Shown piece after piece: positions 12,755-23,762 of a stretch of 23,762 bases of DNA. The notes below the pieces were generated by a model that was not told where the DNA came from, made no database searches, and saw nothing but the letters and a program-made list of their open reading frames with translations. Origin of the DNA: an uncultured Helicobacteraceae bacterium. Lineage in GTDB: Bacteria > Campylobacterota > Campylobacteria > Campylobacterales > Sulfurimonadaceae. The position numbers and the translations under genes are program-made. The stretch's first letter is position 1. The number at the start of each line of letters is the position of its first letter. Location: assembly GCA_947311765.1 (NCBI GenBank), contig CAMZLS010000081.1, positions 1 to 23,762 of the forward strand, written 5' to 3'.

Positions 12755-14729
12755 ATGAAATCTACTAAAATGGGGGGGGGCACTTTTTGTCCTATTGATA
12801 TCATTGCAGTGTAATGCGATAGCTGATAACCAAAATGTACTTAATGCAAAAGCAAAAACTTTTGAGAATGTATCCTTAGATATCGCACAAAGAGATGTTT
12901 TTTTATTAGAGTTAAATGAAAAATATAAAGTTAAGGATGTTGCCAATAAAGTGTCCACAAAATTACTAAAAGTATTGTTGGATAATAAAACAATAAATAT
13001 AGCAGTTGACCTTTTTATTAGTGATGATGTAAATGATTTTACATATACAAAAAATAACAAATATATTAACGCACAAGCAACATATACTTTTAATTTAGAT
13101 ACTAACAAATCGTCATATACTTTAAATGGTGAAAAAAGTATTGATGATTCTATTGCTCAGTATATGGTTGCACAAGAGTTCTTTTTTGCAGAAAAAAAGA
13201 GACTTCGAGAAGAGAAGCGTCAGAAAAATATTAAAAAAATTACTTTAATTTTAAAAAATAATAAGAAAATAAACGCTTTATTAAGTTCTACGTCTGATTA
13301 TGTGAGCATTAATCTTGATAAACATGAACTAGCAAAGCTTCTTAAAGAGGCTGGAGATGCAATTAACGCATATGATATCCATAGTAAATTAACACCATCA
13401 AATACTGCTGCAGAGTGGGATAATAGTCGTAATGGATATTTACAAGGAGTTTCTATAACACAAATGCATGGAGTATGGAATGATTACTTTCCAAATACTA
13501 GAGGTGAAAATATTGCTATTTATTACTCAGATGCACATTGCCCCAATAATGGAAATGATTTGTATTATGGCTATGTTGCAACAACAGGAGCTTGCCAAGA
13601 AGTAGGAAACCTTAACGATGAGGACACAGGTGCAGGGTATCATACACGAATTATAACTGGAATTCTTAGTACAGTTGCTAATGAAGTGAATTTGCTTTGT
13701 AATGATCATGCTAGAGATAGCAGTGATGTAGATAGCCGTTTACCAACTGCTATGGGAAATATAAATATTGAAACATATAGTTTAAATAACTATAATGATA
13801 ATACCTTATCATACAAAAATATTGATGTTGCATTTGATCACCATGCATTTAATAATCGTACAATTCCAGTATTTGTATCAGCTGGTAATAAATTGGATGA
13901 ACTGAATCCAGACAATCACGTTTTATCTCCAGCAAAAGCTTTTAATATTACTACTGTAGGTTCGTACGGGAGAGATGCTGTAGCTGGTACTTTAAGTTGG
14001 TCGAACTTTTCAAGCAATGTTAATCCTGAGACTATAATTGGAAATAGGACTATTCAAAAACCTGAAGTGTCTGGACCAGGAGAACATTTCCATTGTGCTG
14101 ATATTGTAGGTGATGATAGTTGTCATGAACTCTTTAATGAAGATTCTGGAACAAGTTTTGCAACTCCATGGATTGCGGCTATGGCTGCAGATGCTATGTC
14201 TCGTGGGTCATACTGGAGAAGTAGTGCAGCTATGGTCAAAGCTTTAGTTATTTCTGGTGCTTCAGACCCAATTGCAGGTACAAGAGATGAAGTAGGTGAA
14301 GGTGGGGTTGATCTTTTTACAATGACTTGGCAAAATACTAATAGTGGTTATTGGTATGATGCAAATCCTTCAGAGCCATTTAGTGGTACTAATCCAAGCC
14401 AGTTTGATTATAATAACAACTGCTTTACTAATTGGCAAACTCAATTATATGATGGAAGAGATCAACGGATAGTTATTTCTTGGCTTAATGATATTACTAA
14501 TGCCACAACATTGAGTAATATACCAAATAGCTATAGCTTAGAACTGATTAACTCAAATGGTTCTGTTGTTGAAAGCACTTCAGAAGATACACAAGGGTAC
14601 CAAATTATAAATACTAATCAGCCCGCAGGACTTTATACTGTTAGGGTGTGTAAGCTTAGACAGAATTCCTCTCAACGTTTTGATATGGGATTTTCAGTAT
14701 CACAAAGGACAACTCAATGGTGGGATTAA
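12755..14729 (+). CDS. Subtilisin-like (S8 family) serine peptidase with a signal peptide. It is frameshifted at a G9 tract in this sequence (phase OFF); it is in frame with G8 or G11. The in-frame portion begins at TTG 12795
   Basis: SD AAGGGG (12744-12749) is 5 nt upstream of ATG 12755. With 9 G the reading MKSTKMGGGTFCPIDIIAV stops. Removing one G gives MKSTKMGGALFVLLISLQCNA|IADNQ..., a signal peptide continuous with the 644-aa ORF. S8 motifs: FVSAGNKLD (oxyanion Asn) and DSGTSFATPWIAAMAA (catalytic Ser). Confidence 0.7.
12772..12780 (+). repeat. Homopolymeric G9 tract (candidate slipped-strand phase-variation switch) in the 5' coding region of the S8 protease
   Basis: Seen directly. Nine consecutive G in a genome segment of about 33% GC. 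Confidence 0.9.
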
Positions 14730-17887: not shown

Positions 17888-18806
17888 TGGTCTCTATTTT
17901 GAATTTCCAAAGATAGTGTTTGTTATTGGGTTTTTTATCGCTTGTGAGAGTCTATGTAAGATGCGTTTAAGCTCTATCTACTTCCCGCATACCACACAGT
18001 TTACAAAAAAAACTATGGCACAGTCAAAGCTTCTTTTTATACTCAAGTGGCTCGGAATTGTTATGATGATTCTAGCCTTAATGTCTCCAGTTAAAGATGA
18101 AGAGGTGATGCTTGACCCACAAGAGGGTTATGATATTGCCTTGGTTCTTGATGTGAGTCAGTCTATGAGTGCGCAAGGGTTTGATCCGAATAATCCTCGG
18201 GCAAATCGTTTTGATGTGGTGAAGTCAATTGTAGGAGATTTTATCAAAGAGCGAAACAACGATAACCTTGGTTTGGTTGTGTTTGGACTGTACTCTTTTG
18301 TAGCTTCACCTTTAACGTATGATCAAAAGATTTTAAGTCGCATTCTTAAGCAACTCTATATAGGAATGGCAGGAAGATACACAGCACTTTATGAAGCTAT
18401 TGCCCAGAGCGTCAATCTCTTAAAAGATTCTAAGGCTAAAAGTAAAATCGCTATCTTACTTACTGATGGACATAATACCTCAGGGGGGAAAATTCCACTT
18501 GATATTGCTATAGAACTTGCAAAAAAAGAGGGTGTAAAAATTTATCCAATCGGCATAGGTGCAAGAGGTGAATATAATGCTGAGGTTCTAAACACCATAG
18601 CCAAAGAGACGGGTGGAGTAGCTTTTGGTGCACATAGTGCAGAGCAGTTAAAAGAGGTATATCTTAAAATTGATGAGCTTGAAAAATCAGAGATAGAGCG
18701 CGAGAGTTATAACTACTTGCATTACTATTACTTATATCCGCTCTTTTTAGGATTTCTATCACTTTTGGCTTTTGTTTATCTACGAAATAAGAAGGGGTGG
18801 TTATGA
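17877..18806 (+). CDS. batA: VWA domain membrane protein, BatA-like
   Basis: N-terminal TM helices and a VWA MIDAS motif (ALVLDVSQSMS ... LLTDGHNTSGG). C-terminal TM. 11-nt overlap with the upstream gene. Confidence 0.8.
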   Translation: MMFDGLYFEFPKIVFVIGFFIACESLCKMRLSSIYFPHTTQFTKKTMAQSKLLFILKWLGIVMMILALMSPVKDEEVMLDPQEGYDIALVLDVSQSMSAQGFDPNNPRANRFDVVKSIVGDFIKERNNDNLGLVVFGLYSFVASPLTYDQKILSRILKQLYIGMAGRYTALYEAIAQSVNLLKDSKAKSKIAILLTDGHNTSGGKIPLDIAIELAKKEGVKIYPIGIGARGEYNAEVLNTIAKETGGVAFGAHSAEQLKEVYLKIDELEKSEIERESYNYLHYYYLYPLFLGFLSLLAFVYLRNKKGWL

Positions 18807-20662
18807 GTTTTTTACATCCTGAGTTTCTCTATCTGATGCTACCAGCATTGACAATTTTGTTCTTTTTCCTTATTTCAGGAGAAGAAGAACACAATAAATA
18901 CTTCTCTCAAGAAGTTTTACAAAAGCTACAAGTTCATAGCAATACCTTAACTATGCGTGCGAGAAATGCCCTGTTTTTTATTATGTTTGCTCTGATAATT
19001 ATCGCCTTAGCGCAACCTGTTATCGAAGATGGCAAGGTGAAAGTCAAGGCAAAAAGTTCAGATATTATGGTTGCCTTGGATATTTCTGACTCTATGTTGG
19101 CACAAGATGTCTATCCTACACGACTTGAGGCAGCAAAGAAAAAGGTGCTTGACCTGCTTAAGTCTTCACCTCAAGAGCGTATAGGTGTGATGGCATTTGC
19201 AAAAGATGCCTATCTTGTTTCACCTTTGAGTTTCGATCATAGAGCGGTGCGTTTTTTACTTAAACAAGTCAGTACAGGCTCTATCACAGGAAAAGGAACA
19301 GACTTTATAAGACTGCTCACTTCTGCAAAAGGGGCACTCAGTGAAGATGATAATCGTTATCTGCTTATTTTAACTGATGGTGCGGATAAGCAGGATTTTT
19401 CTGAAGAGATTGCACTAGCAAAAAAAGAGGGAATCCGTATCTTTATCTTAGGTGTAGGAACGCCTCAAGGCGCGCCAATTAAGCTCAAAGATGGTTTATT
19501 TATTAAGCAGCATGACAAGATTATCGTAAGTAAGCTCAATAGTGCAATTAAGGAGTTAGCCCTACAAACTGGCGGTGCATATATCGAGTCAGTAACAAGC
19601 TCTGATGATATAAAAGCTATGCTTCGTGAGATTCAAGCCAAGACTGAAAAGCGTGAATTAAAAGAGGAAGAAGTGACACTATATATCGCTCTATTTTATT
19701 ATCCATTGGGTTTAGCTATGTTCTTGTTTTTGATAGCTACTTCATCTATGAGCAAGCGTGAAAGGCTTGTTATGCCACATGCTTTTGTCTTGTTGCTTTT
19801 GGGCTTACATGTAAGCGATGCTCAGGCTGGATTATTGGATTTTCAAATGCTAGAAAATGCCAAGACGAGTTATGAAAGTGAAGATTTTAATAAGAGTTCT
19901 AAGCTCTATGGCGAGTATCTTCAGTCACATAATACCCCTCAAAGTCACTACAACTTAGCAAATGCAGATTATCAAAGGGGTAACTACAAAGCTGCGGCTG
20001 TGGGGTATGAGCAGGTGCATAGTAAAGATAAAGAGTTAGAGTTTAAAGCCTTGCATAATCTTGGAAACTCTTGCTACATGCAAGGTGACCTAGAATCTTT
20101 AAAAAAAGCAGTTGAGTCGTATAAAAAAGCATTAAAAATACACGATGACTCTGACACTAAAGATAACATGAAAAAAGCTCAAAAGAAATTAGAAAAAATA
20201 AAAAAAGAAGAGCAATATAAAGATGATAAAAATGGAGATAAAAATCTAAAAAAAGACAAAAATGGTGACAAAAAGAAATCTGAAAAAGATAAAAATGGTG
20301 ACCAAAAAGAGAAAGATCAGAAAAATCAAGATCAAAAAGATGGTGAAAAACAAGAAGATAAAAAGTCCAAATCTGATGAGCAAAAAGATAAGGGCAAAAA
20401 AGAGTCAAATCAGAACAAAGAACAAAAAGATAAAGAACAAGAGAAGAGGAAAGAGCAAGAGAAAGCTTCTCAAAAATCTGAAGAAAAGAAAAAAGAGCAA
20501 GCTAAACAAGCACAAGCTGCTCAGCAAGAAGACCCCGAAAAAATGAGTGAGCGAGAAGCCCAAAAATGGTTAAAGATGCTCAATGCAAAACCAAGAGAGC
20601 ATCTGTACCAGCTCAATAATGAACAAAGAAAAAAGAGAGATGAAAATGAAAAGCCTTGGTAA
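18797..20662 (+). CDS. batB: VWA + TPR domain membrane protein (BatB/BatC-like fusion) with a long K/D/E-rich low-complexity C-terminal tail
   Basis: TM N-terminus, MIDAS motif (MVALDISDSMLA ... ILTDGADKQD), a second TM, and TPR-like repeats (YNLANADYQRGNYKAAAVGYEQ; LHNLGNSCYMQGDLESLKKAVESYKKA). About 180 aa of KDKNGDK/KEQEK repeats follow. Confidence 0.8.
   Translation: MVMSFLHPEFLYLMLPALTILFFFLISGEEEHNKYFSQEVLQKLQVHSNTLTMRARNALFFIMFALIIIALAQPVIEDGKVKVKAKSSDIMVALDISDSMLAQDVYPTRLEAAKKKVLDLLKSSPQERIGVMAFAKDAYLVSPLSFDHRAVRFLLKQVSTGSITGKGTDFIRLLTSAKGALSEDDNRYLLILTDGADKQDFSEEIALAKKEGIRIFILGVGTPQGAPIKLKDGLFIKQHDKIIVSKLNSAIKELALQTGGAYIESVTSSDDIKAMLREIQAKTEKRELKEEEVTLYIALFYYPLGLAMFLFLIATSSMSKRERLVMPHAFVLLLLGLHVSDAQAGLLDFQMLENAKTSYESEDFNKSSKLYGEYLQSHNTPQSHYNLANADYQRGNYKAAAVGYEQVHSKDKELEFKALHNLGNSCYMQGDLESLKKAVESYKKALKIHDDSDTKDNMKKAQKKLEKIKKEEQYKDDKNGDKNLKKDKNGDKKKSEKDKNGDQKEKDQKNQDQKDGEKQEDKKSKSDEQKDKGKKESNQNKEQKDKEQEKRKEQEKASQKSEEKKKEQAKQAQAAQQEDPEKMSEREAQKWLKMLNAKPREHLYQLNNEQRKKRDENEKPW
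20224..20302 (+). repeat. Imperfect tandem repeat (about 31-33 nt period; GAYAAAAATGGWGAY core) encoding DKNGDK units in the BatB/C-like tail
   Basis: Three copies of GATAAAAATGGAGAT / GACAAAAATGGTGAC / GATAAAAATGGTGAC, at 20224, 20255 and 20288. Confidence 0.6.
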
Positions 20663-22109
20663 AATATTAATTTTAATTGCAGCAGTCTATTCTAGCGTAC
20701 AAGCTGGCGTAAGAGCCGAGCTGAGTCGCGACACTGTAAGCTTAGGTGAGACAGTAATCCTGCGCTTACATGTAGATGCCAACAGAGTCGAAGAGCCTGT
20801 TGTCTCAAAACTGTGTGGAGTAAAGATACTTTCACGTTCACATAGCGCCAATATGCAAATAGTAAATGGAAACTACACAAAAACGCAAGTTTTTAGCTAC
20901 AGTTTTAACCCTATGGCTACATGTAAGATTGAGCCTATCAAAGTGAAGATAGATGGAAAAGATGTTTTTACTCAAGAGTTATCACTCACAGTAAAACCGA
21001 TGAGTATCTCTAAGGATTCTCCTTTTGTCTTAACTATGGAGAGTGAAAAATCGAGCGTTTATGTTGGAGAGCCTTTTAAGCTTACAATAAAACTCAAGCA
21101 ACGCCATAATGCCCAAGCTGTAGATTCAAAATTTGCAGCACCTCTTTTGAAAAACTTTTGGATAAAAGCACAAGAACAAGGCAAGCGTTATGAAGAGGGT
21201 GATTATAGTGTGACAGAAGTGACTTATATTGTTGCCGCGCAAAAGAGTGGGGTGCAACATATTGGGCGTGCCCAGTTGCAAGTTGCACAGCGTGCTCACT
21301 CACAAGATGCTTGGGGTCAATGGTTTCCGCGACTACAATGGCGAAGCTTTTTTACAAATGAACTTGATATAGAGGCGAAGGCACTCCCAAGAGGTGTCAA
21401 TCTAGTAGGTGATTTTAAAATAGCAGCACTCTTAGACAAGAATGAAACAGCTCCAAATGATGCGGTAAATCTAACACTTCAGCTTTCAGGTAGTGGAAAT
21501 TTTGAAGATGTTGGCTCCTTGAAGCCTTTTATTAATGGTGTCAATATTTTTGAAGAAGATGCCGTGATTCAAGGCGCTATAAAAGATGGAACTTATAGTG
21601 GTATTTGGCAACAAAAAATGGCATTTGTATCAGAACATGACTATACAATACCACCTATACAAGTCAAATATTTTAACCCTAAAACAGAAAAAATTGTCAC
21701 TATCAGTACACAAGCCTTACATGTAAAGATAAAAGGTAAAGCAAGAAAAAAAGAAAAAGCTCTTAAAATTGAACGAAGTGATGAGCAAAATTCTTTTGTA
21801 AAAGACGAAGCAAAATCAGTCTCTTTAGGACCTAGCTATCTTTGGCTTATCGGCTTAATTGTTGGGATGCTGATTGGTGTATTTATAATGCTTATTCCAT
21901 GGAAACGCTTTGTGAAAGAGGAGGATACTTTCAAAAGTGTCAATATTCGTGATGAAAAATCGGTATTGAACTTTCTTCTCAATTTTATAAATGATAGAGA
22001 AGTTTTCGAGATGGTAAAACTTCTTGAAGAAAAAATTTATGAGGGAAAAAGTATTACAATTGATAAAAAGCAACTTAAAATATTATTAAAGCGCTTACAT
22101 GTAAAGTGA
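20640..22109 (+). CDS. batD: BatD-like protein (signal peptide, large periplasmic domain, C-terminal TM plus cytoplasmic tail)
   Basis: The ORF is open from 20583, but the signal peptide MKMKSLGKILILIAAVYSSVQA begins at ATG 20640/20646, after AAGAGAGA. C-terminal TM LWLIGLIVGMLIGVFIMLIPW. It sits in the Bat operon context; the family call is by architecture and position. Confidence 0.6.
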   Translation: MKMKSLGKILILIAAVYSSVQAGVRAELSRDTVSLGETVILRLHVDANRVEEPVVSKLCGVKILSRSHSANMQIVNGNYTKTQVFSYSFNPMATCKIEPIKVKIDGKDVFTQELSLTVKPMSISKDSPFVLTMESEKSSVYVGEPFKLTIKLKQRHNAQAVDSKFAAPLLKNFWIKAQEQGKRYEEGDYSVTEVTYIVAAQKSGVQHIGRAQLQVAQRAHSQDAWGQWFPRLQWRSFFTNELDIEAKALPRGVNLVGDFKIAALLDKNETAPNDAVNLTLQLSGSGNFEDVGSLKPFINGVNIFEEDAVIQGAIKDGTYSGIWQQKMAFVSEHDYTIPPIQVKYFNPKTEKIVTISTQALHVKIKGKARKKEKALKIERSDEQNSFVKDEAKSVSLGPSYLWLIGLIVGMLIGVFIMLIPWKRFVKEEDTFKSVNIRDEKSVLNFLLNFINDREVFEMVKLLEEKIYEGKSITIDKKQLKILLKRLHVK

Positions 22110-22144
22110 TCTAATATAGGCAATTTAAAAAGATTAAAAATACT

Positions 22145-22165
22145 AAAGGATAATAATTTTCCTTT
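22145..22165. promoter_or_regulatory. 21-bp near-perfect palindrome AAAGGATAAT-A-ATTTTCCTTT, 50 nt upstream of the desulforubrerythrin gene; candidate Fur/PerR-family operator
   Basis: 9 of 10 arm positions are complementary. The AT-rich ATAAT-type half-sites resemble Fur-family boxes. The downstream genes (rubrerythrin, tpx) are typical peroxide-stress regulon members. Confidence 0.35.
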
Positions 22166-22213
22166 AAGTTTGCATAGTGTATATTTCCCCTATCAAACAA
22201 AAAGGAAGTTATT

Positions 22214-22867
22214 ATGAGACAGTACGAAAGTTATAAATGTGCTAAATGTGGCAATGTCGTTGAAGTATCAAATGTTGGTGGTGGAACACTTGTCTGTTGT
22301 GAGCAAGAGATGGAGTGTATCACTGACAATCTTACCTTAGTAAACTTATTAAAAGCCTTCGCTGGTGAATCTCAAGCACGCAATAAATATGAATACTTCG
22401 CAAAAGTAGCACAAAAAGAGGGCTTTCGTGATATCGCTGATCATTTCCAACGCGCGGCAAATAATGAAAAAACACATGCCAAGCTAGAACTTGCCTTACA
22501 TAATGTTATGCTTGATGGTGAGAAATTTGGTAACACTCTTGAAAATTTAAAAGCAGCAATGGCTGGTGAAAGTTATGAAAATGTAACCATGTATCCTGAC
22601 TTTGCAGCAGTTGCAAAAGAGGAGGGGCATAACGAAGCTGCTCGTCTTTTCAAAGCTATCGGTAAAATCGAAATAGAGCATGAAAATATGTTTAAAGCCT
22701 TGATAGAACGCCTTGAAAGTGGCAATGAGTATCTCAGTGAAAATGACGAAGAGGAATGGATTTGTGAGGTATGTGGTCATGTGCATCGCGGTAAAAAACC
22801 ACCTACAATATGTCCTGTTTGTAAACATCCTGAAGAATATTTTTCAAGACAAAACTCTCGTAAATAG
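22214..22867 (+). CDS. rrc: Desulforubrerythrin (desulforedoxin-like N-domain + rubrerythrin four-helix-bundle + C-terminal rubredoxin-like domain)
   Basis: N-terminal CAKCGN...LVCCEQEM (Dx-type Cys4). Ferritin-like di-iron motifs (AGESQARNKYEYFAK, ExxH repeats). C-terminal CEVCGHVH...CPVCKHPEEYF. Same architecture as Campylobacter jejuni Rrc. SD AAAGGAAG. Confidence 0.85.
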   Translation: MRQYESYKCAKCGNVVEVSNVGGGTLVCCEQEMECITDNLTLVNLLKAFAGESQARNKYEYFAKVAQKEGFRDIADHFQRAANNEKTHAKLELALHNVMLDGEKFGNTLENLKAAMAGESYENVTMYPDFAAVAKEEGHNEAARLFKAIGKIEIEHENMFKALIERLESGNEYLSENDEEEWICEVCGHVHRGKKPPTICPVCKHPEEYFSRQNSRK

Positions 22868-22903
22868 TGTATAATATTTCCACTTTTATTTAAGGGAGTG
22901 TAA

Positions 22904-23413
22904 ATGGATACAACAATGTTTAAAGGTACGACAGTTCATCTTGAAGGCGAAAGCCTCAATGTAGGAGATGAAGCACCTATCGTTACAGCAATAGGAACAG
23001 ATTTAGCAGATGTAAAAATTGGCGGTGTTTCGGATAAGATTCAGCTTATCGTGACTGTACCATCTCTTGATACAGGCACATGCGCAGCAGAAACGCGCCG
23101 TTTTAATAGTGATGTTAATGATTTAGACATCTGTGAAACGACGGTTGTTTCCATGGATCTTCCTTTTGCATCGGATCGTTTTTGCACAACGGAGGGTATT
23201 GCTAACCTTAGTGTAGTTTCTGATTATCTTGACAAAGAGGTGAGCCGCACCTATGGTGTTTTAATGACTGATGGGCTTCTTAAGGGCTTGAGTGCACGAG
23301 CTGTTTTTGTTATCAATCGTAATGGTGAAATTGTCTATAAAGAGATAGTAGCAGAAGTGACAGATGAGCCCAATTATGAAGCAGCTCTAGAAGCTATTAA
23401 AGAGGCACGCTAA
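22904..23413 (+). CDS. tpx: Thiol peroxidase (Tpx-type atypical 2-Cys peroxiredoxin)
   Basis: Tpx signature around the peroxidatic Cys (TVPSLDTGTCAAE) and the resolving Cys region (DRFCTTEG). SD AAGGGAG. A possible -10 TATAAT lies at 22870-22875. Confidence 0.9.
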   Translation: MDTTMFKGTTVHLEGESLNVGDEAPIVTAIGTDLADVKIGGVSDKIQLIVTVPSLDTGTCAAETRRFNSDVNDLDICETTVVSMDLPFASDRFCTTEGIANLSVVSDYLDKEVSRTYGVLMTDGLLKGLSARAVFVINRNGEIVYKEIVAEVTDEPNYEAALEAIKEAR

Positions 23414-23416
23414 TCC

Positions 23417-23445
23417 AATAAATAGTCTTTGTAAGACTATTTATT
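23417..23445 (+). terminator. Rho-independent terminator-like hairpin after tpx (AATAAATAGTCTT tgta AAGACTATTTATT)
   Basis: Perfect 13-bp inverted repeat with a 4-nt loop, starting 4 nt after the tpx stop and followed by a pyrimidine/T-rich stretch. The stem is AT-rich, so its strength is modest. Confidence 0.5.
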
Positions 23446-23687
23446 GTCTCCTTACTTTCATCATTTTAATTCCTTTTTTTATAACTGAAATTTCTTTTAG
23501 TGTAATTTACCCCAATGGTGTCACCAATTGGACACATTGGGATGTATTGAGTTCAAGCTGCGTGATTTGTTGATTGAGGGACGAACCCTCTCACCATATT
23601 GTTACTGTCGGAGGGAAATTAATTCACTGAAGGAAGCATACTTCATCGGTAGTTTGTTTACGTTCATCACACTTGAGATTCCCCCTT

Positions 23688-23699
23688 CCCCCCCCCCCC
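23688..23699 (+). repeat. Homopolymeric C12 tract (preceded by C5TT), non-coding
   Basis: Seen directly. Twelve consecutive C, about 60 nt from the window end. No ORF spans it. Confidence 0.9.
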
Positions 23700-23762
23700 A
23701 CCACTAATTTTGGGATTTCTTATAATTTAATAAATCCTCCACATCTAATAATGAAGAGGCTC

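Follow-up and report, generated by a model that had tools for sequence, protein, structure and literature searches.

Contig, gene content and the conserved side of the tpx locus

The window analysed in this study is a stretch of 23,762 nucleotides that represents one entire contig: identical copies of its Tpx and of its subtilase were each found on a single NCBI contig, 23,762 bp long, which ends inside the segment starting at position 23514. The gene content is Sulfurimonas-like and includes, by Pfam assignment, a BatD-family protein, rubrerythrin and the thiol peroxidase Tpx; the source is a Sulfurimonas-like metagenome-assembled genome (MAG). The Tpx is at most 83% identical to those of the nearest species-level genomes, and its exact sequence occurs on this one contig only and is absent from the gene-position index. 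Upstream of tpx, a 621-aa TPR/Bat-like protein (ORF 18797-20662) has a long low-complexity tail rich in K, E, D and Q (KDKNGDK..., EKKKEQ...) encoded at about 20150-20560, the 3' part of the ORF, in which the AT skew reaches 0.72; the 3' end of this ORF overlaps the listed start of the BatD-like ORF 20583-22109.

The stop codon of tpx is directly followed by a perfect, terminator-like 14-bp hairpin (23416-23446; inverted repeat I1, 100% complementary), which belongs to the conserved side of the locus, lies outside the orphan segment described below and is also present in relatives whose Tpx is 89-98% identical. In the window and in these relatives (L164 and L171-L175), the AT-rich hairpin ATAAATAGTCTT...AAGACTATTTAT has a constant stem and a variable loop. 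Since it lies between convergent genes in the relatives, it is probably a bidirectional terminator. The hairpin is followed by an AT-rich spacer (23447-23513) that ends in TTTACCCC and is still common to relatives with 98% identical Tpx; over 23414-23513 the GC content is 0.25.

A breakpoint downstream of tpx

Four independent contigs from close relatives were available for comparison (L081, L161, L162 and L163, from JGI, ENA and Logan, and including JGI Ga0256840_1002301, a 21.6-kb ENA contig and a Logan contig). Their Tpx is 98% identical to that of the window, and their DNA is colinear with it at 98.2% identity from 21838 (21226 in the ENA contig) to 23513, as in the BLAST alignment with L081 over 21838-23513; beyond this point the sequences are unrelated in four of four. 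At the breakpoint (23513..23514), the shared TTTACCCC is followed by AATGGTG in the window and by TTGTTTTCTCC in all four contigs. The exact junction could be anywhere within 23509-23513, because CCCC is common to both sides. Since the four contigs are colinear up to 23513 and then diverge, the last 249 nt of the contig (23514-23762) are, on this sequence comparison, strain-specific DNA rather than a conserved leader.

In the relatives with 98% identical Tpx, tpx is followed by 270 nt of AT-rich spacer, a 94-aa ORF without a Pfam match, and a group-4 NiFe-hydrogenase-like operon, with TTGTTTTCTCCTTTTTATATG on the hydrogenase side. Neither the 94-aa ORF nor the hydrogenase-like gene set is at that position in the window, where the contig end reads ...CCACATCTAATAATGAAGAGGCTC. 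This whole stretch spans 1847-5125 in L081 and 2459-5737 in L161; its hydrogenase-like set consists of Oxidored_q6, Complex1_30kDa, Complex1_49kDa/NiFeSe and 4Fe-4S proteins, with genes for HypA, a GltD-like oxidoreductase, a TetR regulator and a molybdopterin oxidoreductase behind it.

Across a wider set of loci (L001-L031 and L164-L177), the rubrerythrin-tpx pair is conserved, while downstream of tpx only the immediate hairpin is. The next gene differs by lineage and may encode GroEL, a sensor kinase, prephenate dehydrogenase, a 152-aa convergent ORF or the hydrogenase operon. Judged by gene order, the site downstream of tpx is a recurrent synteny breakpoint in Sulfurimonadaceae, and no relative examined carries the orphan segment. 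Two further candidates were set aside. The end of contig L170, 97 nt after tpx, was considered as an independent break at the same site; in this contig, however, divergence sets in immediately behind the stop codon, and it is uninformative. An invertible segment was rejected, as no reverse-complement copy is present in the 10 kb downstream in the relatives.

Composition, homology and coding signal of the orphan segment

The first 187 nt of the strain-specific DNA (23514-23700) have a GC content of 0.46, compared to 0.21-0.34 in seven other intergenic regions of the contig. The earlier note had described local GC as clearly higher than in the surrounding DNA; this is correct with respect to non-coding DNA, but not with respect to coding windows, which reach 0.475 and include the value of the segment in their range. 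Stop codons interrupt five of the six frames of 23514-23700, and no homologue was found. There is no DNA copy of the segment in the rest of the window or in 177 fetched loci (1.84 Mb), and phage and plasmid collections searched in a distant mode gave no match. Exact searches were also negative, both for the hairpin in metagenome contigs and for four sub-patterns of the segment in viral contigs, and a six-frame concatenated query had no match at E<=10 against 5.8 billion protein clusters. Two weak tblastx matches to an Fe-S oxidoreductase gene (in L119 and L019) are G-rich and non-colinear and were judged spurious.

The same region had been reported as free of ORFs, which is inexact. A 59-codon ORF that begins at a TTG and lacks a Shine-Dalgarno (SD) sequence (ORF59; 23528-23707, plus strand) reads through a run of twelve cytosines, C12, as PPSPPPHH* and stops at 23705-23707. 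In addition, the frame opened by ATG 23751, which the earlier note correctly described as running off the contig end, is open back to 23632. ORF59 has no homologue among 1.84 billion representatives. Its codon-usage score (-0.08) is below that of all 215 genuine in-frame windows of the contig (mean 0.46) and above that of 98.8% of off-frame windows, and its coding status is doubtful. The segment is thus an orphan of non-coding appearance.

One explanation for these properties is an assembly artefact, in which the last 249 nt would be a chimeric tip or a minor-strain path, and no real genome would have them beside tpx. The terminal piece of the contig coincides exactly with the segment, no other assembly supports the segment, and the exact Tpx is on one contig only and missing from the gene-position index, all of which are compatible with such an origin. 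However, DNA taken at random from another genome would in most cases encode protein and find protein homologues, so the non-coding appearance of the orphan argues against a random chimera. Moreover, C12 is too short for a poly-G k-mer hub, no adapter, phage or plasmid match was found, variability downstream of tpx is real in nature, and a comparable tract inside a gene of the same contig (described below) indicates that such tracts are genuine in this genome. An artefact is considered improbable.

RNA structure and RNA families

The earlier note had proposed that the segment carries several strong inverted repeats and looks like a structured ncRNA or a 5' leader. The sequences on which this was based are all present at the coordinates given here: a hairpin with nested palindromes, the repeat GAGGGacgaaCCCTC, CCCCCTT followed by C12, and ATG 23751. 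The hairpin (23510-23541) pairs CCCCAATGGTGTC with GACACATTGGG, contains the nested palindromes CCAATTGG and GGTGTCACC, and has 11 bp, one bulge and an 8-nt loop. It spans the breakpoint; in its left arm, 4 nt come from the conserved flank and 9 nt from the orphan DNA. The minimum free energy (MFE) of a 40-nt window around it is -15.3 kcal/mol on the plus strand and -16.4 on the minus strand, and in a local hairpin scan it was matched by 3.5-7.5% of 200 shuffles, which is marginal. The small hairpin GAGGGacgaaCCCTC (23576-23590; GAGGG-acgaa-CCCTC) is at chance level: when the junction hairpin is left out, a fraction of 0.84-0.87 of shuffles does as well as the local hairpins that include GAGGG/CCCTC. 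This small hairpin was flagged as weakly terminator-like on the plus strand (TGAGGGACGAACCCTCTCA + CCATATTGTT), with a poor T tail.

For the 206-nt region as a whole, the MFE does not differ from that of dinucleotide shuffles (z -0.08 on the plus strand and +0.54 on the minus strand), so there is no excess folding energy, and with only the junction hairpin being marginal the description of several strong inverted repeats was overstated. No relevant Rfam match was obtained for the region at E<=10 or for the whole window at gathering score; the best Rfam 15 hit scored 20 bits, the gathering score being 55.8, and was to the tpx terminator, outside the orphan segment. ARAGORN detected no tRNA or tmRNA. 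An Rfam search and RNA folding were the checks suggested in the earlier note, and both went against its reading: neither a family match nor folding energy beyond that of shuffles was found, and the segment is absent from relatives with 98% identical Tpx. The view that the GC-rich region is a recognisable or conserved structured RNA is not supported.

A related explanation is that the segment is a structured ncRNA or cis-regulatory leader, or the non-coding end of a mobile element with a guide or bridge-type RNA (IS110/IS1111-like or IS200/IS605-like), with the breakpoint as the element end. In bridge RNAs of IS110 elements, the LTG has the same sequence as the top strand across the left target and the core, while the RTG is complementary to the core plus right target (PMC11208160). 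The layout of the segment resembles the left end of IS110-family elements (PMC11208160), having an insertion-like junction without an obvious terminal inverted repeat, then about 237-240 nt without a convincing gene and with GC above that of intergenic DNA, and then a possible ATG; the hairpin at the very end of the segment is marginally non-random. Unlike these elements, the segment has ordinary folding energy on both strands (z close to 0), no visible recombinase, the contig ending 12 nt after the candidate ATG, and no second copy in the window, the 177 loci or the other collections searched. Rfam is also silent at E<=10. Candidate guides were compared with the empty site of the relatives, for which the exact position of the core is uncertain, and matched at 6/9 and 5/9 positions in the plus orientation and at 6/9 and 7/9 in the minus orientation, which is at chance in both (shuffle p 0.22-1.0). 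The geometry of IS608-type elements (a TTAC target and a hairpin about 19 nt inside) and the core sites of integron attC were checked by eye and do not fit. This explanation is regarded as very unlikely.

A more specific form of it would have 23514 as the end of an undescribed mobile or integrative element whose GC-rich end of about 190 nt makes a regulatory or guide-type RNA, with the hairpin across the junction and with C12 toggling the first gene. This form is also considered very unlikely; if true, it would mean a mobile element with its own contingency switch in a free-living, vent-type Sulfurimonas. The case also calls for caution, in that a GC-rich, palindrome-bearing contig end looked like an RNA, yet proved to be an orphan junction without a measurable structural signal.

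Long G/C tracts and the subtilase gene

The C12 homopolymer (23688-23699 on the plus strand, G12 on the minus strand), preceded by CCCCCTT, is a candidate slipped-strand (contingency) tract. The window has only two G/C runs of at least 7 nt, C12 and a G9 tract at 12772-12780. Related Campylobacterota loci, 1.26 Mb in all, contain 208 G/C runs of 5 and 27 of 6, but none of 7 or more. C12 is far beyond chance and is the only clearly non-random element of the region, and it has one property of simple-sequence contingency loci, a homopolymer far longer than the genomic background.

The G9 tract is located within 12756-12813, at codons 7-9 after ATG 12756, in front of a gene for a subtilase (12795-14729; Peptidase_S8). 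The ATG is preceded by AAGGGG, an SD sequence, and followed by AAA TCT ACT AAA ATG and the nine guanines. With G9, the frame from ATG 12756 stops at 12813; with G8, it would read MKSTKMGGALFVLLISLQCNAIADN... into the 644-aa Peptidase_S8 ORF and restore a signal peptide (MKSTKMGGALFVLLISLQCNAIA) comparable to those of full-length homologues. The subtilase as called in the contig starts with MQCNAIA and lacks a signal peptide, whereas all full-length homologues begin with one; homologues are few, with only 10 among 5.8 billion clusters. A change in the length of G9 would therefore alter the expression of an identifiable gene, the placement typical of a contingency locus. On the sequence, the gene appears to encode a secreted protease that is phase-variable and switched OFF, or else to contain a one-base homopolymer miscall. 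Under either reading, G9 indicates that long G/C tracts are genuine features of the accessory genes of this genome.

An interruption was also seen in an orthologue of this subtilase with 71% identity, which is split into ORFs of 87 aa and 564 aa by a +1 frameshift at an A9 run (L168 2002-2010, also in L169). A8 would restore ...DVNYKKNDKY... in these sequences. The split gene calls were recorded on five contigs, and in L168 a DDE transposase adjoins the split gene.

Placement of C12 relative to a possible downstream gene

The sequence between C12 and the contig end contains an AT-rich dyad of 25 nt (GGATTTCTTA / TAATAAATCC; 23713-23737, plus strand, inverted repeat I5), and within it the only consensus -10 hexamer, TATAAT at 23721-23726. 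This hexamer is 21 nt after C12 and 24 nt before ATG 23751, a possible start of a downstream gene (23751-23762, plus strand; ATG AAG AGG CTC, MKRL...) that is open to the contig end and has no SD upstream. C12 is 51 nt upstream of the ATG and is read through by ORF59, and the target gene would be beyond the contig. The earlier note had suggested a promoter with spacing set by the poly-C tract, a mechanism at odds with the geometry. A single hexamer resembles TTGACA, namely TTGAGA at 23673; it is upstream of C12 and would leave a spacer of 42 nt to TATAAT, so the tract is not situated between -35 and -10 elements at a spacing near 17 nt; a sigma-70 scan of 23514-23762 called no promoter pair. 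From its position, it is possible that C12 belongs to the upstream promoter region of the next gene. That it is a phase-variable tract is plausible, with circumstantial support from G9 on the same contig and from the absence of such runs in relatives.

The explanation favored here, tentatively and with a probability of about 0.4, is that the segment is the edge of strain-specific DNA and that C12, being prone to slippage, switches transcription of the gene starting at the contig edge. The first 249 nt of this accessory or rearranged DNA begin at 23514, where gene order after tpx varies, and the contig ends inside it. C12 would be a hypermutable simple repeat subject to slipped-strand mispairing, of the type found in Campylobacterota contingency switches, and would be in the upstream promoter region of a gene starting at or beyond ATG 23751, roughly from -45 to -34 relative to the presumed transcription start. 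With a change in tract length, upstream promoter DNA would be phased or occupied differently with respect to the -10 element, and expression of the gene would rise or fall. Heterogeneity of C12 length in the sampled population would also be the likeliest reason that the assembly stopped 63 nt later. Several observations count against a promoter switch: ATG 23751 is without an SD, no sigma-70 promoter was called, C12 is outside a -35/-10 spacer, and ORF59 runs through the tract. AT-rich upstream DNA is the norm for Campylobacterota promoters, which would make one with C12 in that place unusual. The GC content of 0.46 over 187 nt and the hairpin straddling the junction are left without explanation by the favored reading.

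If C12 acts on translation instead of transcription, then the region described as ORF-free would hold the beginning of an accessory gene that is currently switched OFF, as in an intragenic contingency switch. The frame arithmetic from the six-frame translation fits: C11 or C14 would fuse ORF59 to the ATG-23751 frame that runs off the contig, or alternatively an ORF from TTG 23673 would carry C12 as codons 6-9. G9 would act in this way at codons 7-9 on the same contig, and ORF59, a listed ORF, scores above nearly all off-frame windows in codon usage. Against this, neither TTG (23528 or 23673) is preceded by an SD, an ATG or a GTG, and no credible start codon with a ribosome-binding site is found ahead of C12; the codon usage of ORF59 falls short of every genuine in-frame window, homologues were found for no frame, and chance alone would leave about 60-70 codons open within 249 nt with an estimated probability of about 0.05-0.1, so that such a frame is only mildly unexpected. 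A translational switch is considered unlikely.

The tract could also have no function. In that case, the 187-nt GC-rich stretch would be what is left, after decay, of DNA that was foreign or once coding and that a rearrangement or insertion had brought to the site; C12 would be carried along neutrally, even if unstable. The orphan segment is at a synteny breakpoint, stop codons interrupt nearly all of its frames, it gives no signal as RNA or protein, and its GC content is like that of coding or foreign DNA and unlike that of local intergenic DNA. The tract itself is harder to accommodate, as the neutral origin or persistence of C12 is unlikely where 1.26 Mb contains no run of 7 or more, and it adjoins a perfect -10 hexamer and a possible gene start. 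A functionless remnant is likewise considered unlikely.

Comparison with known phase-variable tracts

In Campylobacter and Helicobacter, G/C tracts of about 8-15 nt serve as phase-variation switches, and to our knowledge both genera lack MutL/MutH/MutS1 mismatch repair. The poly-G/C contingency tracts of these genera are the closest known kind for C12. The contig belongs to the same phylum as Campylobacter jejuni and Helicobacter pylori, the length of C12 is within the typical range, and its rarity relative to background is extreme; the sister tract G9 breaks the frame in the first codons of a secreted protein, and both tracts are in accessory DNA. Unlike the tracts of the two pathogens, C12 is not demonstrably inside a gene and is known from one sequence, and the host is an environmental, Sulfurimonas-like bacterium rather than a host-associated pathogen.

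A milder and more probable version of the mobile-element reading above is that accessory genes of environmental Sulfurimonadaceae carry poly-G/C contingency loci in the manner of their pathogenic relatives, which is about as likely as not. If C12 and G9 are true switches, such loci would not be confined to host-associated Campylobacter and Helicobacter, and they would act on accessory genes, such as those for a secreted subtilase and a neighbor of tpx, in free-living chemolithotrophic relatives. This would bear on how populations diversify their surface or secreted functions, for example against phages or in niche switching.

Promoter-region poly-C switches are found in opc of Neisseria meningitidis and in fim2 and fim3 of Bordetella pertussis. 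C12 differs from these in ending 21 nt before TATAAT, in having neither an identifiable activator site nor a -35 partner, and in the 42-nt spacer to its TTGACA-like hexamer. The resemblance is one of analogy: a run of about 12-15 cytosines closely precedes a -10 hexamer and falls within or close to the -35 position, so that its length could tune transcription.
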